A stretch of 64,000 bases of DNA from a bacterium (lineage in GTDB: Bacteria > SAR324 > NAC60-12). Shown piece after piece: positions 4,980 through 59,140 of the stretch. The stretch lies in the NCBI GenBank assembly GCA_965233585.1, contig CBDDTI010000745.1:160001-224000 (forward strand), in the 5' to 3' direction. The position numbers and the translations under genes were made by a program. The notes under the pieces are model-generated. The model searched no databases, had not been told where the DNA came from, and worked only from the letters and a program-made list of their open reading frames with translations. Position 1 is the first letter of the stretch, and the number at the start of each line of letters is the position of its first letter.

Positions 4980-7312
4980 TTAGTCTGTAAACTCAATGTC
5001 TATATTTTTCTCAGCACCAGTAACCTTTGAAATATCAGCATTTGAGCCAAATGCTGCAGGTTGCCAAACGATTTTTATAGTCACATTTTGTTGGGTAGTG
5101 TGAGGGTTTGCGTTTCCTTCAAATGTGATGGCAACTTTTTTATTATTATCTTGAAGTTGAGCCTTTAACGTCAAACCACTGGGAACAGCTCCTCTAATCT
5201 GATAGTGCGTATCTTTGACAAGTTTGCCTTGGGGGGCATTTTGTGCTTTAAATTGATCCACACCTTCTAAAGTTACTTCCAATATTCCATCTAAAGACCC
5301 GTCATTGGCAGTCTTTTCTGTAAATTTGGTTGCATTATTTTGGTAAACATACTTGATTTCGTTAGGAAGTTTGGCTCCGCCATTGTTACCTCCATTATTA
5401 TTTCCACCGCCATTGTTGTTATTTTTTGGGGGTAGCTTTGCTAACTCTGTTCTTAATTGAGCAAGAATTTTTTCACCTGCACTGACATTATAAAAATAAA
5501 TGGTTTCTGTTCCTGTTTTTGAATCATATGACATGATACGCTATGGCTTGTTGTCATCATAGTCAGCATCATAAGTCACGACAAGATTATTGAAAGGTCT
5601 TGTATATCTCCCATAGATTAAGTAGTCTTTTCCATCTTTGGTCTTAATCTCATAGTCTCTAAGGTAATACGATTTTTTTGTGTCGTGATGATAAACCCAT
5701 TGTTCACCTCCTGAACCATCAGCTTTTGGATTTTTAAAGTATTCTTTATAATCATTCTCACCTCTATTTTTAGCATAAGACTCATCAGCTGCTTTAATAT
5801 AATCTGCGATGGTTGTTTGATCTAGGTAATCTTTCTTTGATTTCGTGCCACAATTTCTTGATGATGAACGAAAAGGTTCATCTTTAGCAGGACAATCCTT
5901 GTCATTTGGATATGCAATTTGACCAAAAGCTTTCCGTTGATAATTCCAAACATATTGAATGTCTCCTTCTCCAAAAGTGACAGAAACATCTTTGAGTGAT
6001 GCTGTACCATACCTTGCCCTCACTAGATCATTCATCAAAATGGTTTGACCTTTCAAGTCCACTGTCTTTGCTTTGTTGCCTTCTGCTGCCATAGTCTCAA
6101 AAACTGTTTTAATGTTATATCCACTTTTTGGCAATGTGTATTTAGCAATAGTTGTCTTCTCTGCTAACTCGTCATCTTCCAGTTTTTTTTCTAAGTTACT
6201 TTTCATCTCATAAATCTTAACTTTGGATTTAGTTAGGTCTAGCCTAAAAGTAAATTCAACAACTTTTTTACCACTCAAAAAGATGTCATTAAAACTGCTT
6301 CCTTGAGCTTTTGAGCTTCGCTGCACTTTTTCTTTAGCAAATTTGAGAGAATCTTTTGAGGCAGTCACCCCTAAATCATAATTGGCTTGTCCAAACTCTG
6401 CATCGTCAGCTGTCTTTTTCAAATCTTCCAAGCGATTGGAGGCTGTTTGCATGACAACCTGATTGATTGCTGTCAGGTCTGTATCATCAATGTTAGCAGC
6501 TTTCAAAGCTTCTTGAAATTGAGTCGTTTGTTTGACCAATTCTTTTGCCACTTTATGCAGCAATTCCGCATCTTTTTTGGTGTTGGCATCGGTGGCTTTT
6601 TTGTTGGGAATGTAGTCATCAAAAGCAGAGGCGGTGTAGTCTTTGCCATCGTGCATGTCTAGCTTTGCTAAAATATTTTGTTCAGCATCTGTTGGGTCTA
6701 AAGTGGGGTCTATGTCCATTTCTGCTTTAGCGAGGGTGGTCAAAGGAGAGATGACAGCTTGCTTGCCTGCTGGAGTAGAAAGAGTGTAGGGTTTAGCCAC
6801 TTTTGCACCTTTGTCATCTTTGTCTTTGGAATCTGCCGTGACCTCTGCAATGATGGGATAGTTTTCTTGGTCATCAATGACTTGGTCAAAGGCATACTTT
6901 CCAGTTGCATCAGTCATGGCAAAGGGTTCATCTGCATCACATTTGGTGTTTCTGTTTTTGTCAAGACAGACTTTGGCATTTTCAATATAGCCATCTACCA
7001 CTGTTCCAGCAAGTTTGGCTTTGGCTTGAGTGGTCGTCTTTTCTTGTTTTGTTTCAGAAGAGTCAGAGCTACTGTCATCATCATTTGCACAAGCGAAAAT
7101 GACAAAAATTGTCAGCGGAATGAGAAGAGTTTGAGTGAAAAAATCTTTAAAAAAGAAAGGAAAGTTTTTGAGAAAAACTTTGCGAGGGGGTGATTTTTGT
7201 CTTGACTTTTGAAAAAGCTGATTCAGCCTATAATAGATTGCGGATTGCGGATTGCGGATTGCGGATTGCGGATTGCGGATTGCGGATTGCGGATTGCGGA
7301 TAAATTTTCCAT
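4980..7312 (-). pseudogene. Phase-variable surface lipoprotein, currently OFF (heptamer frameshift) and split by an in-frame TAG at 5541-5543
   Basis: ATG 7312 gives MENLSAIRNPQ... and stops at 7223; the adjacent frame is open from the repeat through the signal peptide LLIPLTIFVIFA-C (Cys 7091-7089) into ORF 5541-7001; ORF 4980-5534 continues in the same frame after TAG CGT ATC. Confidence 0.85.
7239..7301 (-). repeat. Simple sequence repeat (ATCCGCA)9
   Basis: Nine perfect heptamers plus ATC, starting 11 nt after the A of ATG 7312. Confidence 0.97.
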
Positions 7313-7390
7313 GTCGTTACCTTTTTTAGGTTGATAATAAAAAGATGCTATTTAGACCATCATCTCAAATAGCTAGAAAAGAAGTAGAAG

Positions 7391-7419
7391 ATTGTAGCTG
7401 AGTCAAAAATGAAATGCAA
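7391..7419 (-). promoter_or_regulatory. Sigma70-type promoter TTGCAT-N17-TACAAT for the lipoprotein gene
   Basis: Near-consensus hexamers with 17-nt spacer; identical copy at 57219-57247. Confidence 0.75.
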
Positions 7420-14654: not shown

Positions 14655-15035
14655 TTAGTTGGGAGTAGGAAGAGAAGCAAACAAAAAGGCTAGCATGACG
14701 CCAAGTGTCACGAGATTTAAGGAAATGCCAAAACCCACCATCCATGACAACAGCTTGAATTTGCTATCAACTTTCTTATTGAGACTAGCAACCTGCTCTT
14801 TCGTCGCTTTTTGCTTCAGCTGCTCTTCTAAACTAGCAACCTGTTCTTTCGTCGCTTTTTGCTTCAACTGCTCTTCTAAACTAGCAACCTGCTCTTTCGT
14901 CGCAAGTTTGGAAAAGTTGCTTTCCACAACAGATTTAAATTCTTCTGTTAGTGCCTCTGCTTGTTCTTGTTCAAAGCCTGCAGATTGAAGATGTTTAGAC
15001 GTCTTAAGTGTGTCAAAAAGCAAAGCAGTTTCCAT
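14655..15035 (-). CDS. DUF1640/CCDC90-like coiled-coil protein with C-terminal TM
   Basis: FDTLK...L..AGFEQEQAEAL, repeated ATKEQV, C-terminal hydrophobic helix. Confidence 0.8.
   Translation of the reverse strand: METALLFDTLKTSKHLQSAGFEQEQAEALTEEFKSVVESNFSKLATKEQVASLEEQLKQKATKEQVASLEEQLKQKATKEQVASLNKKVDSKFKLLSWMVGFGISLNLVTLGVMLAFLFASLPTPN
14784..14903. repeat. 2.5 tandem copies of a 48-bp in-frame repeat
   Basis: ACTAGCAACCTG(C/T)TCTTTCGTCGC recurs at 14784, 14832, 14880. Confidence 0.92.
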
Positions 15036-22995: not shown

Positions 22996-23661
22996 TTATG
23001 TTCTCTTGGTAAAAAATGCTCCTCTTCCCAACGACCAGCAGTTATTAATTGTCCAATATAAAACTGCTGCTGCTGGGGCTGTGTAAAGAATTACTAAAAA
23101 AAAGAATGCTAAAGCCAGTAATTTCAGAGTTTCAGAAGCTGTTACTGCCTCAAAAAAATAAAGCGACCCCAAATTAATCAAAGTCATAATGACAGGAAGC
23201 ACGTTAACATCAAGTCCTGCAATGTTTAGAATTTGATCAGGTTTTGATAAATCATTGACCAAAAAGAAAGAAACACCCTGAAAAGGAGTGTAACTAATCA
23301 ACAAGAGATATGCCGCTATGAAAAATGGCACTTGAATAAAAAACCCCAAACTGGACCGCAAAGACTGAATGGGGTGATAACGATGTTCTTTGTAGAGTTG
23401 TGAGATTTGTTTAAAACGTTCTTCACCTCGTGAATTTTTTTTAATCTCTATTATTTTGGGTTGCAACACAGACTGAATCTGGCGTTCTTTCTGGTCTAGT
23501 TTTTCTGCAATTTGATAAAGCGGTATCATCAAGAGATTCACAGCCAGACTCAAGATAATAATTGACAAACCATATTCTCCAACCACTGCAAACGCTTGTT
23601 CCAATATCAGTTGCATCAAAAGTGAGAGTGGGGCAATAAAAATAGATTGTAATAACTCCAT
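22996..23661 (-). CDS. Short YidC/Oxa1-family membrane protein
   Basis: YGLSIIILSLAVNLLMIPL, LQPKI..IK, IQVPFFIAAY, DLSKPD, LYWTINN. Confidence 0.85.
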   Translation of the reverse strand: MELLQSIFIAPLSLLMQLILEQAFAVVGEYGLSIIILSLAVNLLMIPLYQIAEKLDQKERQIQSVLQPKIIEIKKNSRGEERFKQISQLYKEHRYHPIQSLRSSLGFFIQVPFFIAAYLLLISYTPFQGVSFFLVNDLSKPDQILNIAGLDVNVLPVIMTLINLGSLYFFEAVTASETLKLLALAFFFLVILYTAPAAAVLYWTINNCWSLGRGAFFTKRT

Positions 23662-24777
23662 TTACAGACTTTCCAAAATTTCAATGATTTGATTGGCAGC
23701 AATTTCACCGACCTGCCCGACATGGTATAAAGAGCTATTCATTAATTCTGTCATTTGTTCCTGATTCATTTGTGTTGTGGTTTGCTTCACGATATGAGCT
23801 AGTTGTGGCAAATCTTTTTCTGTGATTACCGTCCCCAGCATTTTCCTCACACGCAATTCCCAAAGTTCATTATCTAGTAAATCTATTTCCGTTCCTTCTG
23901 TCTCAATTTCAGATTCAACACAGATGACAGGTTTTTTGCACAAAAAAGCAAAATCAAAAATCATGCCTGACAAATCTGAAATCATGGCGTCCGCTTGGAG
24001 CATGGAAGACATTCCATCATTCTCATAGTCCCATGTGACTAAATCAGAATGGCTGAATCTCTGCTTCAAACTTTGCAAAAGTGCGGGATGAGAAATTTTT
24101 GTCTGTGGGTGTGGTCGGACAATCACTGAATAATTCTGGGCAATCAAGGGGTCAATCAACTTGTGTCCATAACGTTCTAGGCAACTATTTTTACCCCAAG
24201 TCCCTGCAATTAAAACGGTTGGCTGATTTGATTCTTGGACAGAATAAGCCTCCTTTTTTTGAAATAAAAAATCTAAGTGAGGAAACCCAGTCTGATAAAG
24301 TGTCTTGGGAGGTGTTTGGTGCTTTTCTTCCAGAGTTCTAATATCCAATTCTTGGTGCTTTCCTGCACACAAAACACTATCAAAGTGATCAAAAGCATGC
24401 GACCGATACAAACCACAACCTGTTGGTGCATGGAAAAGATAAGTGTAATGCTTGACCCCTGGAGACCTCTTGATGTTAAGAATGTTTAGATTTGGTGTGG
24501 TCATCACGACAAGCTTTGCAGCAAGCAAGTTCATCCACAAAGCAGACCCTGTATTTCCTCCGATAAAAAACGCATTCACCCCAGACAGTCCCATCTTAAA
24601 GACAGGATCACTCTGGCTCATGGTCAGAACACAACTTTGCTGACCTTTTTGTGTCAGAGCCTTCAGCACGGGTTCAAGTGTTGAAAAATATTGACCACCT
24701 TCAGAAAAAAAAACTAAATGACGACTTTCTTTGGGAAGGTTCAGAAAACGGATTGCCTCTTTGAGATAAAATCTCAT
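23662..24777 (-). CDS. CDP-glycerol glycerophosphotransferase family protein
   Basis: LIAGTWG, VRPHPQ, ADAMISDLSGMIFDFAFL.KKPVI. Confidence 0.8.
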   Translation of the reverse strand: MRFYLKEAIRFLNLPKESRHLVFFSEGGQYFSTLEPVLKALTQKGQQSCVLTMSQSDPVFKMGLSGVNAFFIGGNTGSALWMNLLAAKLVVMTTPNLNILNIKRSPGVKHYTYLFHAPTGCGLYRSHAFDHFDSVLCAGKHQELDIRTLEEKHQTPPKTLYQTGFPHLDFLFQKKEAYSVQESNQPTVLIAGTWGKNSCLERYGHKLIDPLIAQNYSVIVRPHPQTKISHPALLQSLKQRFSHSDLVTWDYENDGMSSMLQADAMISDLSGMIFDFAFLCKKPVICVESEIETEGTEIDLLDNELWELRVRKMLGTVITEKDLPQLAHIVKQTTTQMNQEQMTELMNSSLYHVGQVGEIAANQIIEILESL

Positions 24778-46524: not shown

Positions 46525-47448
46525 CTAGAGAGTCACAAATGCCTCATCAAAAATCTGATTAAGTTTTGAGTCAAGGCTTATGCTTTTTTCTAATTTAGAA
46601 TGTGGAATCTTAAGATTTTCTAGGACATTTTTAAATTTTTTGTAACCCATATTGTTTCTCAATTCAACCCATTCTATATGCAGTTGCTCCAATTGAGCTT
46701 TATTTTGGTCTGAAAGTTTATCTGCAATAAAGACTTGACTATCTCTTGCAATCACAGTGTCAGCACCTTCGGGATTCCCTTTGCCCATCAACTTGACCTC
46801 ACACTTGTATTCTTTACCATGACTTTTTAAAAAGAAGTCAACTTCTCTGCTCACCTCTCCTTTTTTAACTCGTCTTGAGGTTTGTTTCATTGCATAGTGA
46901 TCTTGTGAAACTTGATAAAGTTTACACAGAGTCAGCATTAACAAACCCTCTGCCTGCTTGCCAGCAGTACTCCAAAGCCCACCACGCAACGCTGCCCTTT
47001 TGACAGCTAGCGTGTTGATAACAATCAAGCTTTCATTGATGTTTAATTCAACACTCACCTTATTAAATTTAATTTGAAGAGAAAGATTCATATCCTCAAC
47101 TTTTGTCAAATCATCAATCACTTTGTATAGCGTGTCATAATGCTCGTGTGATGCTTCAATAATCACTTCTCTCGTACCAGAGTTGTACATATTCACGACT
47201 GTTTTTTTATTCAACCCAGAATTAATCGCAATTTCTTCAGAGGTAAGTCCATCACTTAGCATCTCTTTTTTGTACCAATCAATGTCAATATCCCTATTAC
47301 TCAACTTTGCTTCTGCAACCTGTTTAAAAAATTTAATCACAAATTGAAGAAACTCAGCATTGATTAAAGTCACAATCTCTATTCTATAATCATCACCCGC
47401 AATTAATTTACGGACTATATTTTTTGTGACCTGCTCTGTTAAAGTCAT
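46525..47448 (-). CDS. Type II restriction endonuclease, CfrBI family
   Basis: INTLAVKRAALRGGLWSTAGK, REVDF, CEVKLMGKGNPE; adjacent to an MTase. Confidence 0.85.
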   Translation of the reverse strand: MTLTEQVTKNIVRKLIAGDDYRIEIVTLINAEFLQFVIKFFKQVAEAKLSNRDIDIDWYKKEMLSDGLTSEEIAINSGLNKKTVVNMYNSGTREVIIEASHEHYDTLYKVIDDLTKVEDMNLSLQIKFNKVSVELNINESLIVINTLAVKRAALRGGLWSTAGKQAEGLLMLTLCKLYQVSQDHYAMKQTSRRVKKGEVSREVDFFLKSHGKEYKCEVKLMGKGNPEGADTVIARDSQVFIADKLSDQNKAQLEQLHIEWVELRNNMGYKKFKNVLENLKIPHSKLEKSISLDSKLNQIFDEAFVTL

Positions 47449-48824
47449 TCTATTTTCTCTCTAAATTCACTTAAAGTAAAAAACTTAGCTCCTCTTTCCT
47501 CAAGAATAGGTAAGTGATTTTGATTAAAAAATGATTTCATATATTCAAAATACTTAGGCTCTTTTTCTGTTAAGAAAAAAAATCTATCCAATAGTTGTGC
47601 AGTTTTACCCAAAGTTCCACTACCACCAAATGGATCAAAAACTAAATCCCCCTTAAATGAGTAATAATTAACAATATTTTTGCATAAATCTGTCGGAAAA
47701 ACAGCCGAATGCACTTTATCAAATTTGGGATCTATCTCCCAAACATTAGAGGTTTCGTATGTTCCTTGAACTTGACTTTCTTCTACGATTTGGGATTCAT
47801 ATTGCCTAATATTCCAGTCAATCAGTTTGTCTGTTTTTTTACGATACACCATTAAATATTCAGTTCTAGCATTGGGTTTATACGCTAATGGTTTGCGGTG
47901 TTGTAGAAAACCAGCATTGCGATTTTTGACGCTTGCCTCTGGCTTGACCCAAACGATGTCATCAATAAACTCCCATCCTATTTCAGCTAATAAGTAATGT
48001 AGATCAAAAGGGATTGGGTAACGTTTTGACGCATACTGGCGACTAATTCTGGGAACAATGACTGGTGATGTATTGACAACCAAAAAACGTCCTTCTTTTG
48101 TTTTTTCAAAAGTCAGTTGAAAAACTTCTTTCAGAAAATCAAGATATGCGCGATAACTTTTATAAATTGAGTAATCACGGGCATTGTAATATGGAGGAGA
48201 AGTAAAGGTCAGGTGAAAGCTTTCATCTGGAATCAATTTTAAGACGTCCCTAACATCGCCTGATACAATAGTATTTTTCAGAAATTCATAAGATTCTGAA
48301 TGCTTTAATTTGTCTTTAGAGACACATTTTTCACTGAAGTACTCTTTTCTAACGATTGTTTGTATAGCTTCATTTTCATGAGATATAAACGCCTTTAATT
48401 TATCATCAATTTTTGGTTCTCCTTTAAATACAAGCAAACCTCTAATGGCTTGGCTTATGACTTTAGGGTCATTGTCCTCTAGCATTTCCACCAAAGCAGA
48501 AACAGCTTGCTTGCTTCTCATTCTTCCAAGAGATGAAACAGCTTCTCTTCTTATTTCTGTGAACTGATCATTTTTTGCAATTTTAAATAAAATTGGAATA
48601 TATTTTTGATTTTTGATTTTTCCAATAGTTTTAACGGCATTTAAGCGAATTTTTTTGTTATCACTTTCTAAAAAATCTTGTAACCAACTATCATCAAAGT
48701 CTTTAGGTAAATGTCCAAGATTTTCAAGTATAAAAATGAGACTTTGATCATCTTTTTTTGACTCAACAAATCTTTTTAAATCTCCAGTGTTTTTTAATTC
48801 TGAAACAGACTTTTTTGTCAGCAT
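47445..48824 (-). CDS. HEAT-repeat / DNA methyltransferase fusion (N4C/N6A, beta class)
   Basis: N-terminal RLNAVKTIG, RREAVSSLG, ISQAIRGL repeats; TSPPY before DPFGGSGT. Confidence 0.9.
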   Translation of the reverse strand: MLTKKSVSELKNTGDLKRFVESKKDDQSLIFILENLGHLPKDFDDSWLQDFLESDNKKIRLNAVKTIGKIKNQKYIPILFKIAKNDQFTEIRREAVSSLGRMRSKQAVSALVEMLEDNDPKVISQAIRGLLVFKGEPKIDDKLKAFISHENEAIQTIVRKEYFSEKCVSKDKLKHSESYEFLKNTIVSGDVRDVLKLIPDESFHLTFTSPPYYNARDYSIYKSYRAYLDFLKEVFQLTFEKTKEGRFLVVNTSPVIVPRISRQYASKRYPIPFDLHYLLAEIGWEFIDDIVWVKPEASVKNRNAGFLQHRKPLAYKPNARTEYLMVYRKKTDKLIDWNIRQYESQIVEESQVQGTYETSNVWEIDPKFDKVHSAVFPTDLCKNIVNYYSFKGDLVFDPFGGSGTLGKTAQLLDRFFFLTEKEPKYFEYMKSFFNQNHLPILEERGAKFFTLSEFREKIE

Positions 48825-48861
48825 TTTAGAATGATTGAAGGCGTTTTCTGAGAACTTTTTT
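48624..48861. repeat. 238-bp direct repeat, copy A
   Basis: Matches 50701-50938 with about 10 mismatches by eye; offset 2077 bp. Confidence 0.93.
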
Positions 48862-48880
48862 TTAAAACTACATTACGATT

Positions 48881-49708
48881 TTACTCACTGACCAAGTTAT
48901 TATTATCTACTAGCCCCAATACCATTAGCGATGTTTCAGCCACATCAACCATGATTGGTATCATTTCTTCTACAGTCCACGGTATTGCCTTGGTGAATAT
49001 TGAGGCAGCCTGTAACATAACTTTTTCACCGTTAGATGTGGTTATAAAAATATTTTTACAGGCATTTTGATTGATTGGCATACTAAAATTAGAAGCAGTT
49101 AAGCGATCTATTCTATTTAATGCCCCAACGTCATGGTGCAATTCAATCTTTCTACCATCTGGACGTTCAACTATCAATGATTCTGTTAAAAAGTTTGAAC
49201 CTTGCAAGAATAAAACATAAGGAAAATGCTTTTCACCTACCATAACATTACGTATTTCATTTATATTTTTGTGTGATCGTTCTATAGCGTTTCCAGCAAC
49301 CATCAGATCTTGATCTTTATTTTTTCCAACTAACACACCATTCCTTATGTTCTCTATATCTTTTCCTTGGTGTTTCGCTTCTGAAACCAACACCACTCGC
49401 CAGTCGCCATTGAAATCTAATACTTCTATTATTCCCCCATCTGGCTTGATAGATGAGTTGCTAACAAAAAGGGTTATTCCTAGTCTTTTATCTATGGCAT
49501 TCAATCTCTGATTTATTTCTGATTTGCTTATTTTTTCCCTGTAACGGAACTTTAAATTCTCAAAAGAGTTTTTTAGGATTTCAAAAACAATCCTAGAAAC
49601 TTCTTTTACTGATCCATCATGATCCTGAGCTGCTTCACCAAAAATGCCACCAACTCCTTTGTTTTTTATGTGCTGAATTGTTAGTCTTTCGGTTTGATTC
49701 TTTTTCAT
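48881..49708 (-). CDS. EcoRI/RsrI-family restriction endonuclease
   Basis: GIFGEAAQDHD, SIKPDGG, SEAKHQGKD, DLMVAGNAIERSHKN, FPYVLFLQGSNF. Confidence 0.93.
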   Translation of the reverse strand: MKKNQTERLTIQHIKNKGVGGIFGEAAQDHDGSVKEVSRIVFEILKNSFENLKFRYREKISKSEINQRLNAIDKRLGITLFVSNSSIKPDGGIIEVLDFNGDWRVVLVSEAKHQGKDIENIRNGVLVGKNKDQDLMVAGNAIERSHKNINEIRNVMVGEKHFPYVLFLQGSNFLTESLIVERPDGRKIELHHDVGALNRIDRLTASNFSMPINQNACKNIFITTSNGEKVMLQAASIFTKAIPWTVEEMIPIMVDVAETSLMVLGLVDNNNLVSE

Positions 49709-50679
49709 TTTTTATGCTGTTGCTTCTTTTTTTTACAATCCATTTTTGGAAATTGGTTTAATGCTCTTGATATATCTATACTTTGAACTATTTCGTAGGG
49801 CTTAACAAACATACTATCCTCAATTTTTTCTATATGAGACTGAAGGTAATCGTTTAGAGAAGGATCATTATCTACTAAAATTGAATTCCTACCTACTTCA
49901 ATACAAACTCTTCCAGTTGTTCCTGAACCAGCAAAAAAATCAAGAACCAATGAACCAGGGTACGAAAGACTTAGAACAAATCTACGTATAATTTCTATCG
50001 GTTTTTGTGTAGGGTGTCCTACTCGCTCCTTTGAATTGCCATTAAGCCTGCCAATTTCCCAAACATTGGTTGGGTTCTTCCCCTTATCTATGGTTTTAGA
50101 ATTTAATCTTTTGTCTTTTTTATACATTTTTTTTGTTTTTTCATCATATGGCTCTCTTACTGAGTCAAGATCAAAATAGTACTTATTTGTTTTTGAAAGC
50201 CAAACAGCTTCTTCATGTCTATTTGCAAAAAACCTGTGTGCGCTCATTCCATTTCGGTAATACCATATGACCAGATTGACGAAACGTAACTTAGTTGAGT
50301 GTCTTGTATAATGTAGTATTTCCAAAAGGTCTCCTTTTTTGAGGTCTTGGTATTGGAAACCCCCAAAAATAACACAATTTCCAGAAGGTGCTAAAACTCT
50401 ATAAATTTCATCAAGCCAAAGTTTCGCCCATTCTAAATAATTGTTAAAAGTATCCCAATAATCTAAATTTAAATTATAAGGGGGATCAACCAATATCAAT
50501 TGAATCGTATTATTAGGAATACTTTTTAATGCCTCAACGGCATCTTGAATTAAAACTGTGTGGATGGTCTTTTCAGTATCATAGATAGGCAAATCCATAT
50601 TAGAGCTATGACTTACACCATTTTTCCTTTGACTATTGATTGCAATATGTCCTTTATTAAAATGTGATTTGTTTGGCAT
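49705..50679 (-). CDS. Adenine-N6 DNA methyltransferase, beta class (M.RsrI-like)
   Basis: DPPY, GMSAHRFFANRHEE, RLNGNSKERVGHPTQKP, DFFAGSG. Confidence 0.9.
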   Translation of the reverse strand: MPNKSHFNKGHIAINSQRKNGVSHSSNMDLPIYDTEKTIHTVLIQDAVEALKSIPNNTIQLILVDPPYNLNLDYWDTFNNYLEWAKLWLDEIYRVLAPSGNCVIFGGFQYQDLKKGDLLEILHYTRHSTKLRFVNLVIWYYRNGMSAHRFFANRHEEAVWLSKTNKYYFDLDSVREPYDEKTKKMYKKDKRLNSKTIDKGKNPTNVWEIGRLNGNSKERVGHPTQKPIEIIRRFVLSLSYPGSLVLDFFAGSGTTGRVCIEVGRNSILVDNDPSLNDYLQSHIEKIEDSMFVKPYEIVQSIDISRALNQFPKMDCKKKKQQHKK

Positions 50680-57058: not shown

Positions 57059-57218
57059 ATCATTCTTGAATAGCTTTTTTGAAACCAGCATCCAAAAGTG
57101 ATACGGGTTTTAAAGAAACCAAGATGAGTTTTAGCTTTGACGTCAAAACTCACAGAGTAGCAAGCATGATTTGATTTTTTGCATCATCTGTATTTTTCTC
57201 AAATTTTACAAAAAGTGC

Positions 57219-57247
57219 TTGCATTTCATTTTTGACTCAGCTACAAT
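57219..57247 (+). promoter_or_regulatory. Sigma70-type promoter TTGCAT-N17-TACAAT (second copy)
   Basis: Identical to the reverse complement of 7391-7419. Confidence 0.75.
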
Positions 57248-57300
57248 CTCCTACTTCTTTTCTTGCTATTTAAGATGATGGTCTCAAGTAGCATCTTTTT

Positions 57301-59140
57301 ATGAACCTAAAAAATGTGATCTCATGCAAAATTTATCCGCAATCCGCAAAGTTTTTTCACCTCATTAAATCTTACTTCTCCAAACTCTTTCTCATTCCTC
57401 TTTCAATCGTTTTTGTTCTTTCTGCTTGTGCAGAAGATGATCAATCTGGTGACAATAAAGATGAGGATACCAGAGACTTTAACTTGGAGGACGGAAGGTT
57501 CAAACTGACCAAGATAGAGATTAGTGGTGGTACTTTTGAGCTGAATAAGGGTAGCAATTTCGGCATTGAGGTTAGATTGGGAAACAAAGTCTGCTTTTAA
57601 CTTCAAGTATGTCGGAAGAGGGTCATTCAATGCTGCTGATGGCACAACTCTGTCCATGTCTTGTAACCCCGATGTCACTGGCAAGCTGCAGTGGAAGAAA
57701 ATCAATAGTGATGGCATCGTAGAAGAAGCCATTTCAGAAAAAACCTTCTTTTTGCGAGACTGTCCTGTGGGTGCTGCTGATGTATTCAGACCTGAGGTAC
57801 AAGAATCAATCAAGATTATTACCGAAGGCATTGACGATGGATTCCTTGTGGAAATCAAAAATGACGGAGAACAAAACGTTCTCTATTTTGAGAATACGAC
57901 TCTCATACCTTTTCCAGCAAACGCAACAATCAAACTCTACTTCTCTAAAAAGGAAAACAAAGATGAGGACAAAGGAGATGCACCGCTCTCCAAAAAATGG
58001 TCTAAATTGCTTGGTACTAGCAGTGATGATCTTGCATATGGAGTAAGTGTAGATTCTTCAGGAAACGTTTACATGACAGGAGGCTATAGAGGAACTTTAG
58101 ATGATGGATTCTTTTCAAATTATGAGACATTTTTAGTTAGGTATAACAGTTCGGGTAACGAACAGTGGCGGTGGACTTTGGGAAAAAATATAGGAGCTGG
58201 AGTGAGTGTGGATTCTGCAGGAAATGTCTACGTCACAGGAGCCAAAGAGGACGTTGGAGAGGATGATGAAGACGTCGTCCTGTACAAGATTAACAGTTCA
58301 GGTGACTATCAGTGGGAAAGAGTTATCGGCACTAACAGTTGGGATTATGGGACAGGAGTGAGTGTGGATTCTGCAGGAAATGTTTACGTGGCAGGATACT
58401 CTGGAGGAGATTTTGATGGACACATCAATTCAGGAGGGTATGACATGTTTTTAATCAAGTATGACAGTTCAGGCAACAAGAAGTGGTCTAAATTGTTGGG
58501 GTCTGACAAGGATGACTCGGCACAAGGAGTGAGTGTGGATTCTGCAGGAAATGTCTACGTCACAGGAAGCTCCCAAGGAGACTTTGATGGACACACCAAT
58601 TTGGGAGAATATGACGTGTTTTTAGTCAAGTATGACAGTTCAGGTAACAAAAAGTGGTCTCGTCTGCTTGGCACTAGCAATAATGATTGGGGAAATGATG
58701 TGAGTGTGGATTCTGCAGGAAATGTCTACGTCACAGGACAGTTTGGACACACCAAGCAAACGGGAGGTAATATGTTTTTGACCAAGTATGACAGTTCAGG
58801 TAACAAAAAGTGGGCAAAATTGCTGGGGTCTGACAATAATGATTGGGGAGAATCAGTGAGTGTAGATTCTTCAGGAAATGTCTACGTCATAGGAAGCTCT
58901 TGGGGAAATTTTGACGGACATGCCAATTCAGGAGAACGAGACATGTTTTTGGTCAAGTATGATTCATCAGGCAACAAAAAGTGGTCTAAATTGTTTGGCT
59001 CTAGCAGTGATGATGATGCAAATGGAGTAAGTGTGGATTCTGCAGGAAATATCTACGTCACAGGAAGCTCTAAAGGAAATTTTGATGGACACGCTAGTTC
59101 AGGAAGTTGGGACATGTTTTTAGTAAAGTTTGGGCAGTAG
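57301..59140 (+). pseudogene. Lipoprotein with a C-terminal 7-bladed SBBP beta-propeller, frameshifted
   Basis: Signal LFLIPLSIVFVLSA-C (Cys 57427) in ORF 57301-57600; propeller in ORF 57566-59140 in another frame (shift between 57545 and 57597); seven VSVDSxGN(V/I)Y repeats; (ATCCGCA)2 at 57335-57348. Confidence 0.8.

Follow-up and report, generated by a model that had tools for sequence, protein, structure and literature searches.

A lipoprotein gene in the bacterial DNA analysed here carries a perfect heptamer array, (ATCCGCA)9, between its start codon and its signal peptide, and from its sequence we consider it about 80% probable that this is a slipped-strand translational phase variation switch of the neuO/opa type. 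The stretch examined (the window) comprises 64,000 nucleotides of one contig from a genome assigned to SAR324. The array is part of a family: the same promoter-RBS-ATG-repeat-signal-peptide block, called here the cassette, is present in eight copies in the genome, on five or six unrelated families of exported proteins, some of them ON and others OFF. The original prediction, which had described the array and its frames, overlooked two things, this genome-wide family and a possibly premature TAG at the end of the body. The features of the locus and of a second copy in the window are collected in Table 1.

Table 1. Features of the heptamer locus and of the second cassette copy in the window
Feature	Coordinates	Strand	Remarks
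Putative sigma70-type promoter TTGCAT-17 nt-TACAAT	7391..7419	minus	By-eye reading of the upstream alignment, five of nine copies
SD-like AAGG (7323-7320) and start ATG 7312	7310..7327	minus	ATG context shared with the start of an intact 464-aa 2-unit paralogue
ORF of the OFF-state peptide, 29 aa	7223..7312	minus	Reads MENL(SAIRNPQ)3SIIG; TGA 7225-7223
Perfect heptamer array (ATCCGCA)9	7239..7301	minus	Nine 7-nt units, no stops in any of the three frames
Post-array leader	7089..7238	minus	Basic n-region, h-region, lipobox IFA-C, Cys codon 7091-7089; conserved compared with paralogues
Mature lipoprotein body, 516 aa	5541..7091	minus	N-terminal GTVVDGYIENAKVC domain; five homologues, all lipoproteins; TAG 5543-5541
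184-aa ORF	4980..5534	minus	Same frame, two codons past the TAG; no SD or signal peptide; weak motif support
Second cassette copy	57172..57450	plus	Has the upstream block common to the cassettes, ATG 57324, two ATCCGCA units (57335-57348), a leader reduced in length and a lipobox; frame does not match ATG 57324
SBBP beta-propeller body of the second copy	57566..59140	plus	Another frameshift, near 57590, lies between this body and its lipobox

The array consists, as claimed at the outset, of nine perfect minus-strand units, and TRF delimits it at 7236-7301 (9.4 copies, 100% matches). It is not a product of chance, since no 7-mer exceeded two tandem copies in 30 of 30 shuffles of the window. The first unit lies 11 nt 3′ of ATG 7312, which is itself preceded at 7 nt by the SD-like AAGG. 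The locus has two attributes of an SSR translational contingency locus: a long perfect repeat with a unit that is not a multiple of three, placed between a start codon (deduced from paralogues) and the functional coding region. A putative promoter would lie 5′ of the array, although a promoter consensus scan did not flag this TTGCAT-17-TACAAT arrangement.

The frames are also as originally described. Reading from ATG 7312 yields only the short OFF-state peptide, and the frame of the signal peptide, the lipobox Cys and the body is offset from it by 2. At nine units 74 nt separate ATG 7312 from the body, so that the two are joined only at n = 7, 10 or 13 (n = 1 mod 3), in agreement with the earlier calculation that 7 or 10 units would restore the fusion. 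Which frame is read past the array depends on copy number, the two non-body frames stopping after 2–4 codons. The open frame following the array spans 565 aa. The leader of an ON allele would be very long, with 69 or 76 aa ahead of the lipobox Cys, which is a point against the switch. From its upstream stop (7319) to GTG 7001 the body frame lacks ATG, GTG and TTG codons, and thus has none before the Cys; a canonical in-frame start between the tract and the Cys, which would have spoken against the switch, is therefore absent. It is for this reason that the program-made ORF list and the public annotation (P0001) both begin at GTG 7001, downstream of the Cys codon, and give a 486-aa product without a signal peptide, an omission that had already been noticed in the ORF list.

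In the proposed mechanism, translation would begin at ATG 7312 and proceed through the heptamer array, while slipped-strand gain or loss of 7-nt units at replication would shift the frame. One copy number in three would bring ATG 7312 into frame with a long Sec/SPII signal peptide so that the lipoprotein is made; the other two phases would stop a few codons past the array and leave a short peptide, and the 9-unit assembly consensus would correspond to OFF. Since the whole block appears to have been copied onto unrelated exported proteins, each would switch independently and the cell surface would diversify. The stochastic ON/OFF control that had been proposed agrees with the layout, the frames, the paralogues and the leader of a relative (below); change of unit number in the population, with slippage, reversibility and selection by host or phage, is what we infer from these.

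The stretch that follows the array has a basic n-region, a hydrophobic h-region and a lipobox Cys, as expected of a Sec/SPII signal peptide, and aligns gap-free across 144 nt with four paralogous leaders (64–72% DNA identity). The Phe at −2 of its lipobox is atypical, the paralogues having ISAC, FSAC and LSAC. Five homologues from outside the genome were recovered among 8000 scored candidates, with 32–50% identity across 21–44% of the query. Their Cys (residue 19–26) is invariant in all five and aligns with that of the window protein just before a common GTVxDG..NAxVC domain. The true gene therefore includes the stretch dropped by the caller, and the lipoprotein assignment survives. The body itself has no match to any Pfam or NCBIfam family, matches only clusters without a name in the atlas searched and is absent from 40 related genomes (0/40). 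A single-sequence fold was useless (pLDDT 34); a 6-sequence fold was confident only for residues ~38–127, whose model gives a middling match to transthyretin-like/carboxypeptidase beta-sandwiches (Z 5.8–6.7), a resemblance that does not assign a function. From the kinds of protein carried by other cassette members a binding or adhesion role may be guessed at, and the same bodies (Kelch, SBBP, collagen-like and barrel-like) suggest that the lipoproteins may be surface exposed.

That the outside homologues have signal peptides of ordinary length raises the question of whether the array could instead lie in a 5′ UTR and tune expression, in an hmw-like or Beggiatoa TAACTGA-like manner, with the lipoprotein starting from a non-canonical codon past the array. 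In-frame codons of this kind exist (CTG 7226 and ATT 7121), and heptamers 5′ of start codons have been proposed as regulators in Beggiatoaceae (PMC4679880). However, neither codon is preceded by an SD, whereas an SD-backed ATG stands 11 nt before the array, and two paralogues are read through from the homologous ATG. In one of them, C746:304839 with 2 units, an uninterrupted frame of 464 aa leads from this ATG through the leader; the other, the repeat-free C745:12375 (P0129), opens with MQKL at the homologous position. In both the Cys follows the Met by 57 residues, so that long signal peptides are normal for the cassette leader; together they point to ATG 7312 as the true start of the lipoprotein gene. 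The codons directly past the array also carry a third-position bias: over the first 24 of them, substitutions among five leaders number 38/37/67 on codon positions 1/2/3 (pairs not independent), and over the leaders as a whole 124/72/142 (10 pairs, not independent), a pattern that would be expected of translated DNA. Finally, the folding of the mRNA region is unremarkable (z = -0.12) and provides no indication of an RNA-structure role. We regard a 5′ UTR array as very improbable and retain translation through the repeat.

The cassette family provides the broader evidence for the switch. Seven sites carry tandem ATCCGCA units (24, 18, 17, 9, 8, 2 and 2) and an eighth carries an 8-mer, (AATCCGCA)10. 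All eight share one layout, an ATG, a short spacer, the array and a conserved leader, which ends in a lipobox except in one copy with a type I signal. The array lies 11 nt downstream of an SD-backed ATG in six of the eight; in the remaining two the distance is 3 nt and 26 nt. Five copies also have in common an upstream block of ~120–150 nt (78–88% identity), in which the promoter-like TTGCAT-17-TACAAT lies. The bodies include the orphan lipoprotein of the window, two DUF7151/collagen-like proteins that are mutual paralogues, a Kelch propeller, two SBBP propellers, another lipoprotein and a protein without a Pfam match which we read as barrel-like. In the bacterial part of the genome (2.87 Mb in five contigs, leaving aside the end of C745), six of the eight perfect arrays of at least 40 nt belong to the cassette, each 3–26 nt behind the ATG of a gene for an exported protein. 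Among the six long arrays (8–24 units) five are OFF and one, the 17-unit array on C295, is ON; random phase would give ~2 ON. A clear SD is missing from one of the long-array copies, C746:488464, and alternative in-frame starts are present past the array in two others, C747:156588 and C295:101551; both points weigh against the switch.

Two further arrangements were observed around the cassette. In the 17-unit copy (C295:101696-101900) a 1-nt leader deletion causes the original lipobox frame to stop, and a new signal peptide and lipobox occur in the shifted frame, an arrangement that resembles the grafting of a cassette onto a gene. The upstream promoter block is also found, at C747:1048467-1048344, ahead of a gene with neither repeat nor signal peptide.

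A leader related to these was found outside the genome. A profile of six leaders retrieved three proteins among 7997 scored, two of the source genome and P0130, encoded on an ENA contig of another assembly. Searched against 1.84 billion representatives, the leader profile gave five matches: two from the source genome, P0130, P0131 and P0133. The last two are repetitive chance matches and were dropped as cassette relatives. P0130 reads ..RRSHGK(NPKSEIR)5NPKSEI-YYRLNWLFQKSRQK..ISAC, and only one 7-nt unit, AATCCGA, can encode its repeat, in ~17–18 copies. Since its body is only 28–34% identical to proteins of the source genome, it comes from another organism. The HGK ahead of its array matches the off-frame reading of the window across the ATG (RHGK), which suggests, from the protein alone, that this copy is also OFF; the upstream start called for it could also be real. 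The unit is thus a 7-mer of one or another sequence or an 8-mer, in 2 to 24 copies, and never a multiple of three. Whichever start P0130 uses, the cassette is retained as its unit changes, a pattern in keeping with selection for slippage and not for sequence.

Searches for other alleles of the window locus returned the lipoprotein gene body in four runs (two samples of one study, one of which may be the source), as Logan contigs; no RNA run was listed among them, an absence that carries no weight in either direction. Such contigs cannot count a 63-nt array, and variation in unit number is accordingly seen only among paralogues (2–24 units). Four tandem units were present in none of 40 related genomes and, with both unit variants allowed, in none of 63 other genomes of the order, many of which are incomplete. 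The pattern of array plus flank had no match in the genome contig collection, nor, with either unit, in the metagenome contigs.

Could the arrays simply have grown by neutral slippage in dispensable paralogous leaders, knocking the genes out, so that the window gene is a young pseudogene? The OFF phase of five of the six long arrays would fit such decay, as may the possible second lesions in two of the eight cassette genes. One of these is the SBBP (LipL53-like) lipoprotein paralogue at window 57324-59140, which has a ~65-nt leader deletion in addition to a second frameshift and is probably a pseudogene. The other is TAG 5543-5541, which may remove the last 186 aa of the lipoprotein. The final helix motif of the homologues aligns just past this TAG, weakly, as 7 of 300 shuffles reach its score; a full-length profile gave no support for a C-terminus continuing beyond it. 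The ORF at 4980..5534 would be either the cut-off C-terminus of the lipoprotein gene or a separate gene. Since in-frame neighbouring ORFs are common in the genome (156 of 1862 long ORFs), the TAG could be a normal stop; we nevertheless lean towards a premature one, in which case even an ON allele may yield a C-terminally shortened protein. Recoding of TAG found no support, there being no amber-reading tRNA among 36 tRNAs. Against decay as a general explanation, the remaining long-array bodies are open for 367–823 aa, long arrays are nearly confined to the cassette leader, and a second organism carries a long-array cassette as well. We consider decay unlikely, and a functional switch the better account of the family.

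A further concern is the assembly, on whose consensus the repeat count rests: the number of units could be an error or a consensus of mixed alleles, the gene being mostly ON in nature. The genome is a 12-Mb metagenome bin in which ~2.9 Mb of gene-dense contigs are accompanied by ~9 Mb of foreign, low-coding, microsatellite-rich contigs, one of them ending in TTTAGGG arrays. Nevertheless, the megabase contigs resolve five arrays of identical units at five distinct lengths, those housekeeping genes of the window that were scanned align with almost the full length of their family profiles, and 16 of 18 control G8-9 runs leave the frame around them intact, evidence against assembly indels as a general problem. 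Mixed alleles, moreover, would themselves favour switching. A miscounted array in a gene that is mostly ON therefore has very little to recommend it, and we keep to the 9-unit allele as an OFF phase of a switch.

The foreign contigs bear on the nature of the sample, since low-coding DNA with microsatellites and TTTAGGG arrays suggests co-binned eukaryote DNA and hence a host-associated source. C745, the contig of the window, has few genes and many microsatellites beyond ~575000, as do the small contigs; its end is likely to be chimeric, and the bin to include eukaryote DNA. For release factor 1, the named matches among the best 120 are SAR324 cluster bacterium (4) and Deltaproteobacteria (1), at 62–64% identity, with one relative at 91%; the best matches of PlsX do not exceed 50% identity and do not place the organism. 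The organism is thus SAR324-like and was probably associated with a host. The SAR324 lineage is known as one of free-living marine bacteria. SAR324 MAGs have also been described from coral skeleton (PMC9868349), a record that did not enter into the placement of this genome.

Both mutS and mutL are intact, which gives no support to a mutator background; 7-nt loops are poorly repaired by MutS. A rough motif count gave 16 Kelch-like and 12 SBBP proteins in the genome. There is also a second family, of 18 lipoprotein genes (on C747, C746, C745 and C729; for example C747:406675-440851), which share MLEQIKSIQ..LAGC[TV]PP and carry a G-run in the signal-peptide codons. Ten of the 18 are in frame and eight out of frame, and the six copies with the run broken to at most 3 G are all in frame. 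Compared with the other G8-9 runs, of which 16 of 18 leave their frames intact, this family counts in favour of switching.

Other repeats were observed in the genome. A (GTCGGAA)15 array at C295:240617-240721 (minus strand) lies in a gene that we read as SAM-methyltransferase-like from its YGCGLG motif and that is frameshifted at the array and again shortly past it. A C13 run at C295:21866, at the 5′ end of a lipoprotein gene of ~2200 aa and out of frame with the upstream ATG, is a possible further switch. At C729:57424 a C14 run is found where two overlapping open frames meet, and at C746:350495-350794 a 12-mer array of 25 copies lies in frame inside a coding region. In the window itself, the gene for a small CCDC90-like coiled-coil protein carries an in-frame 48-nt tandem repeat (14784-14903, 2.5 copies). 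At 22996-24777 an unrelated 371-aa ORF runs, at a TAA-ATG junction and without change of frame, straight into a short YidC-like gene of 221 aa; a broken yidC was rejected here, as these are two separate genes. Two adenine DNA-methyltransferase-like genes on either side of an unknown ORF (47445-50679) form a possible restriction-modification cluster.

Taken further, the data raise an idea for which we see even odds: that promoter, RBS, ATG, slippery 7/8-mer and long signal peptide form a portable switch-and-export module. In a SAR324 lineage living with a host, this module would have spread to surface proteins that are unrelated to one another, and it would persist between species even as its repeat unit is replaced. 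Together with the lipoproteins of the poly-G family it would endow this uncultured marine lineage with a combinatorial surface repertoire of the kind that pathogens have. If so, the six long arrays alone would provide 64 states. Repeat-driven phase variation is known mainly from vertebrate pathogens and commensals; a switch set in a SAR324-clade bacterium would show bet-hedging of this type in a lineage known as free-living and marine, and would point to the proteins that are pressed by host or phage. Gene callers shorten such genes, as with the 486-aa call without a signal peptide here, and the loci are thereby hidden in MAG annotations. The literature covered, outside of which fall most subscription journals and supplementary tables, contains no report of phase variation in SAR324, nor of the ATCCGCA repeat or its peptide.

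Among known systems, the pentamer of the opa genes encodes the hydrophobic core of the signal peptide. The closest likeness of the window locus is to neuO of E. coli K1 (CUS-3 prophage), in which a heptanucleotide repeat in the 5′ coding region is in frame at one copy number in three; it has 3–53 units, was OFF in 42 of 64 genomes and shows neighbouring alleles at a few percent (PMC13001214). In contrast, neuO is a single gene for a cytoplasmic enzyme, with a different unit and with variation that has been measured, whereas the window repeat precedes a signal peptide and is common to many unrelated exported proteins. The Neisseria opa genes are described as a multi-locus family in which a repeat in the signal-peptide coding region switches translation (PMC4534519 and PMC5953494). 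They combine a pentamer, CTCTT, with homologous beta-barrel adhesins, whereas the cassette places a 7- or 8-mer in a hydrophilic n-region ahead of unrelated bodies, and the window gene has the unit ATCCGCA and a lipoprotein body in place of an Opa barrel. Such known multi-locus cases repeat one protein; one leader on unrelated bodies suggests a simple route to an on/off switch for any exported protein.

Genic heptamers in Neisseria pglE and of the H. influenzae HI1369 type, and the promoter heptamers of hmw1A/hmw2A, are likewise given as elements of phase variation or modulation (PMC2651432, PMC5953494). pglE and HI1369 are single genes, whereas the window array is one of a cassette family. 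The hmw arrays lie 5′ of the start codon and tune expression (PMC2651432), in contrast to the window array, which is 3′ of the ATG. In Beggiatoaceae, as in the cassette, a single heptamer recurs close to the 5′ ends of numerous genes in a marine bacterium: TAACTGA occurs in 2–6 copies, in 169 sets 5′ of start codons, with no functional bias (PMC4679880). The cassette differs in having eight sites, which lie within the reading frame and are all on exported proteins; at none of them is the array upstream of the start. N-terminal bias of repeats is itself regarded as a mark of phase variation (PMC3315296). The window locus thus works like neuO and opa and belongs to neither: the mechanism is known, while a portable cassette on unrelated bodies and its presence in the SAR324 lineage are new.
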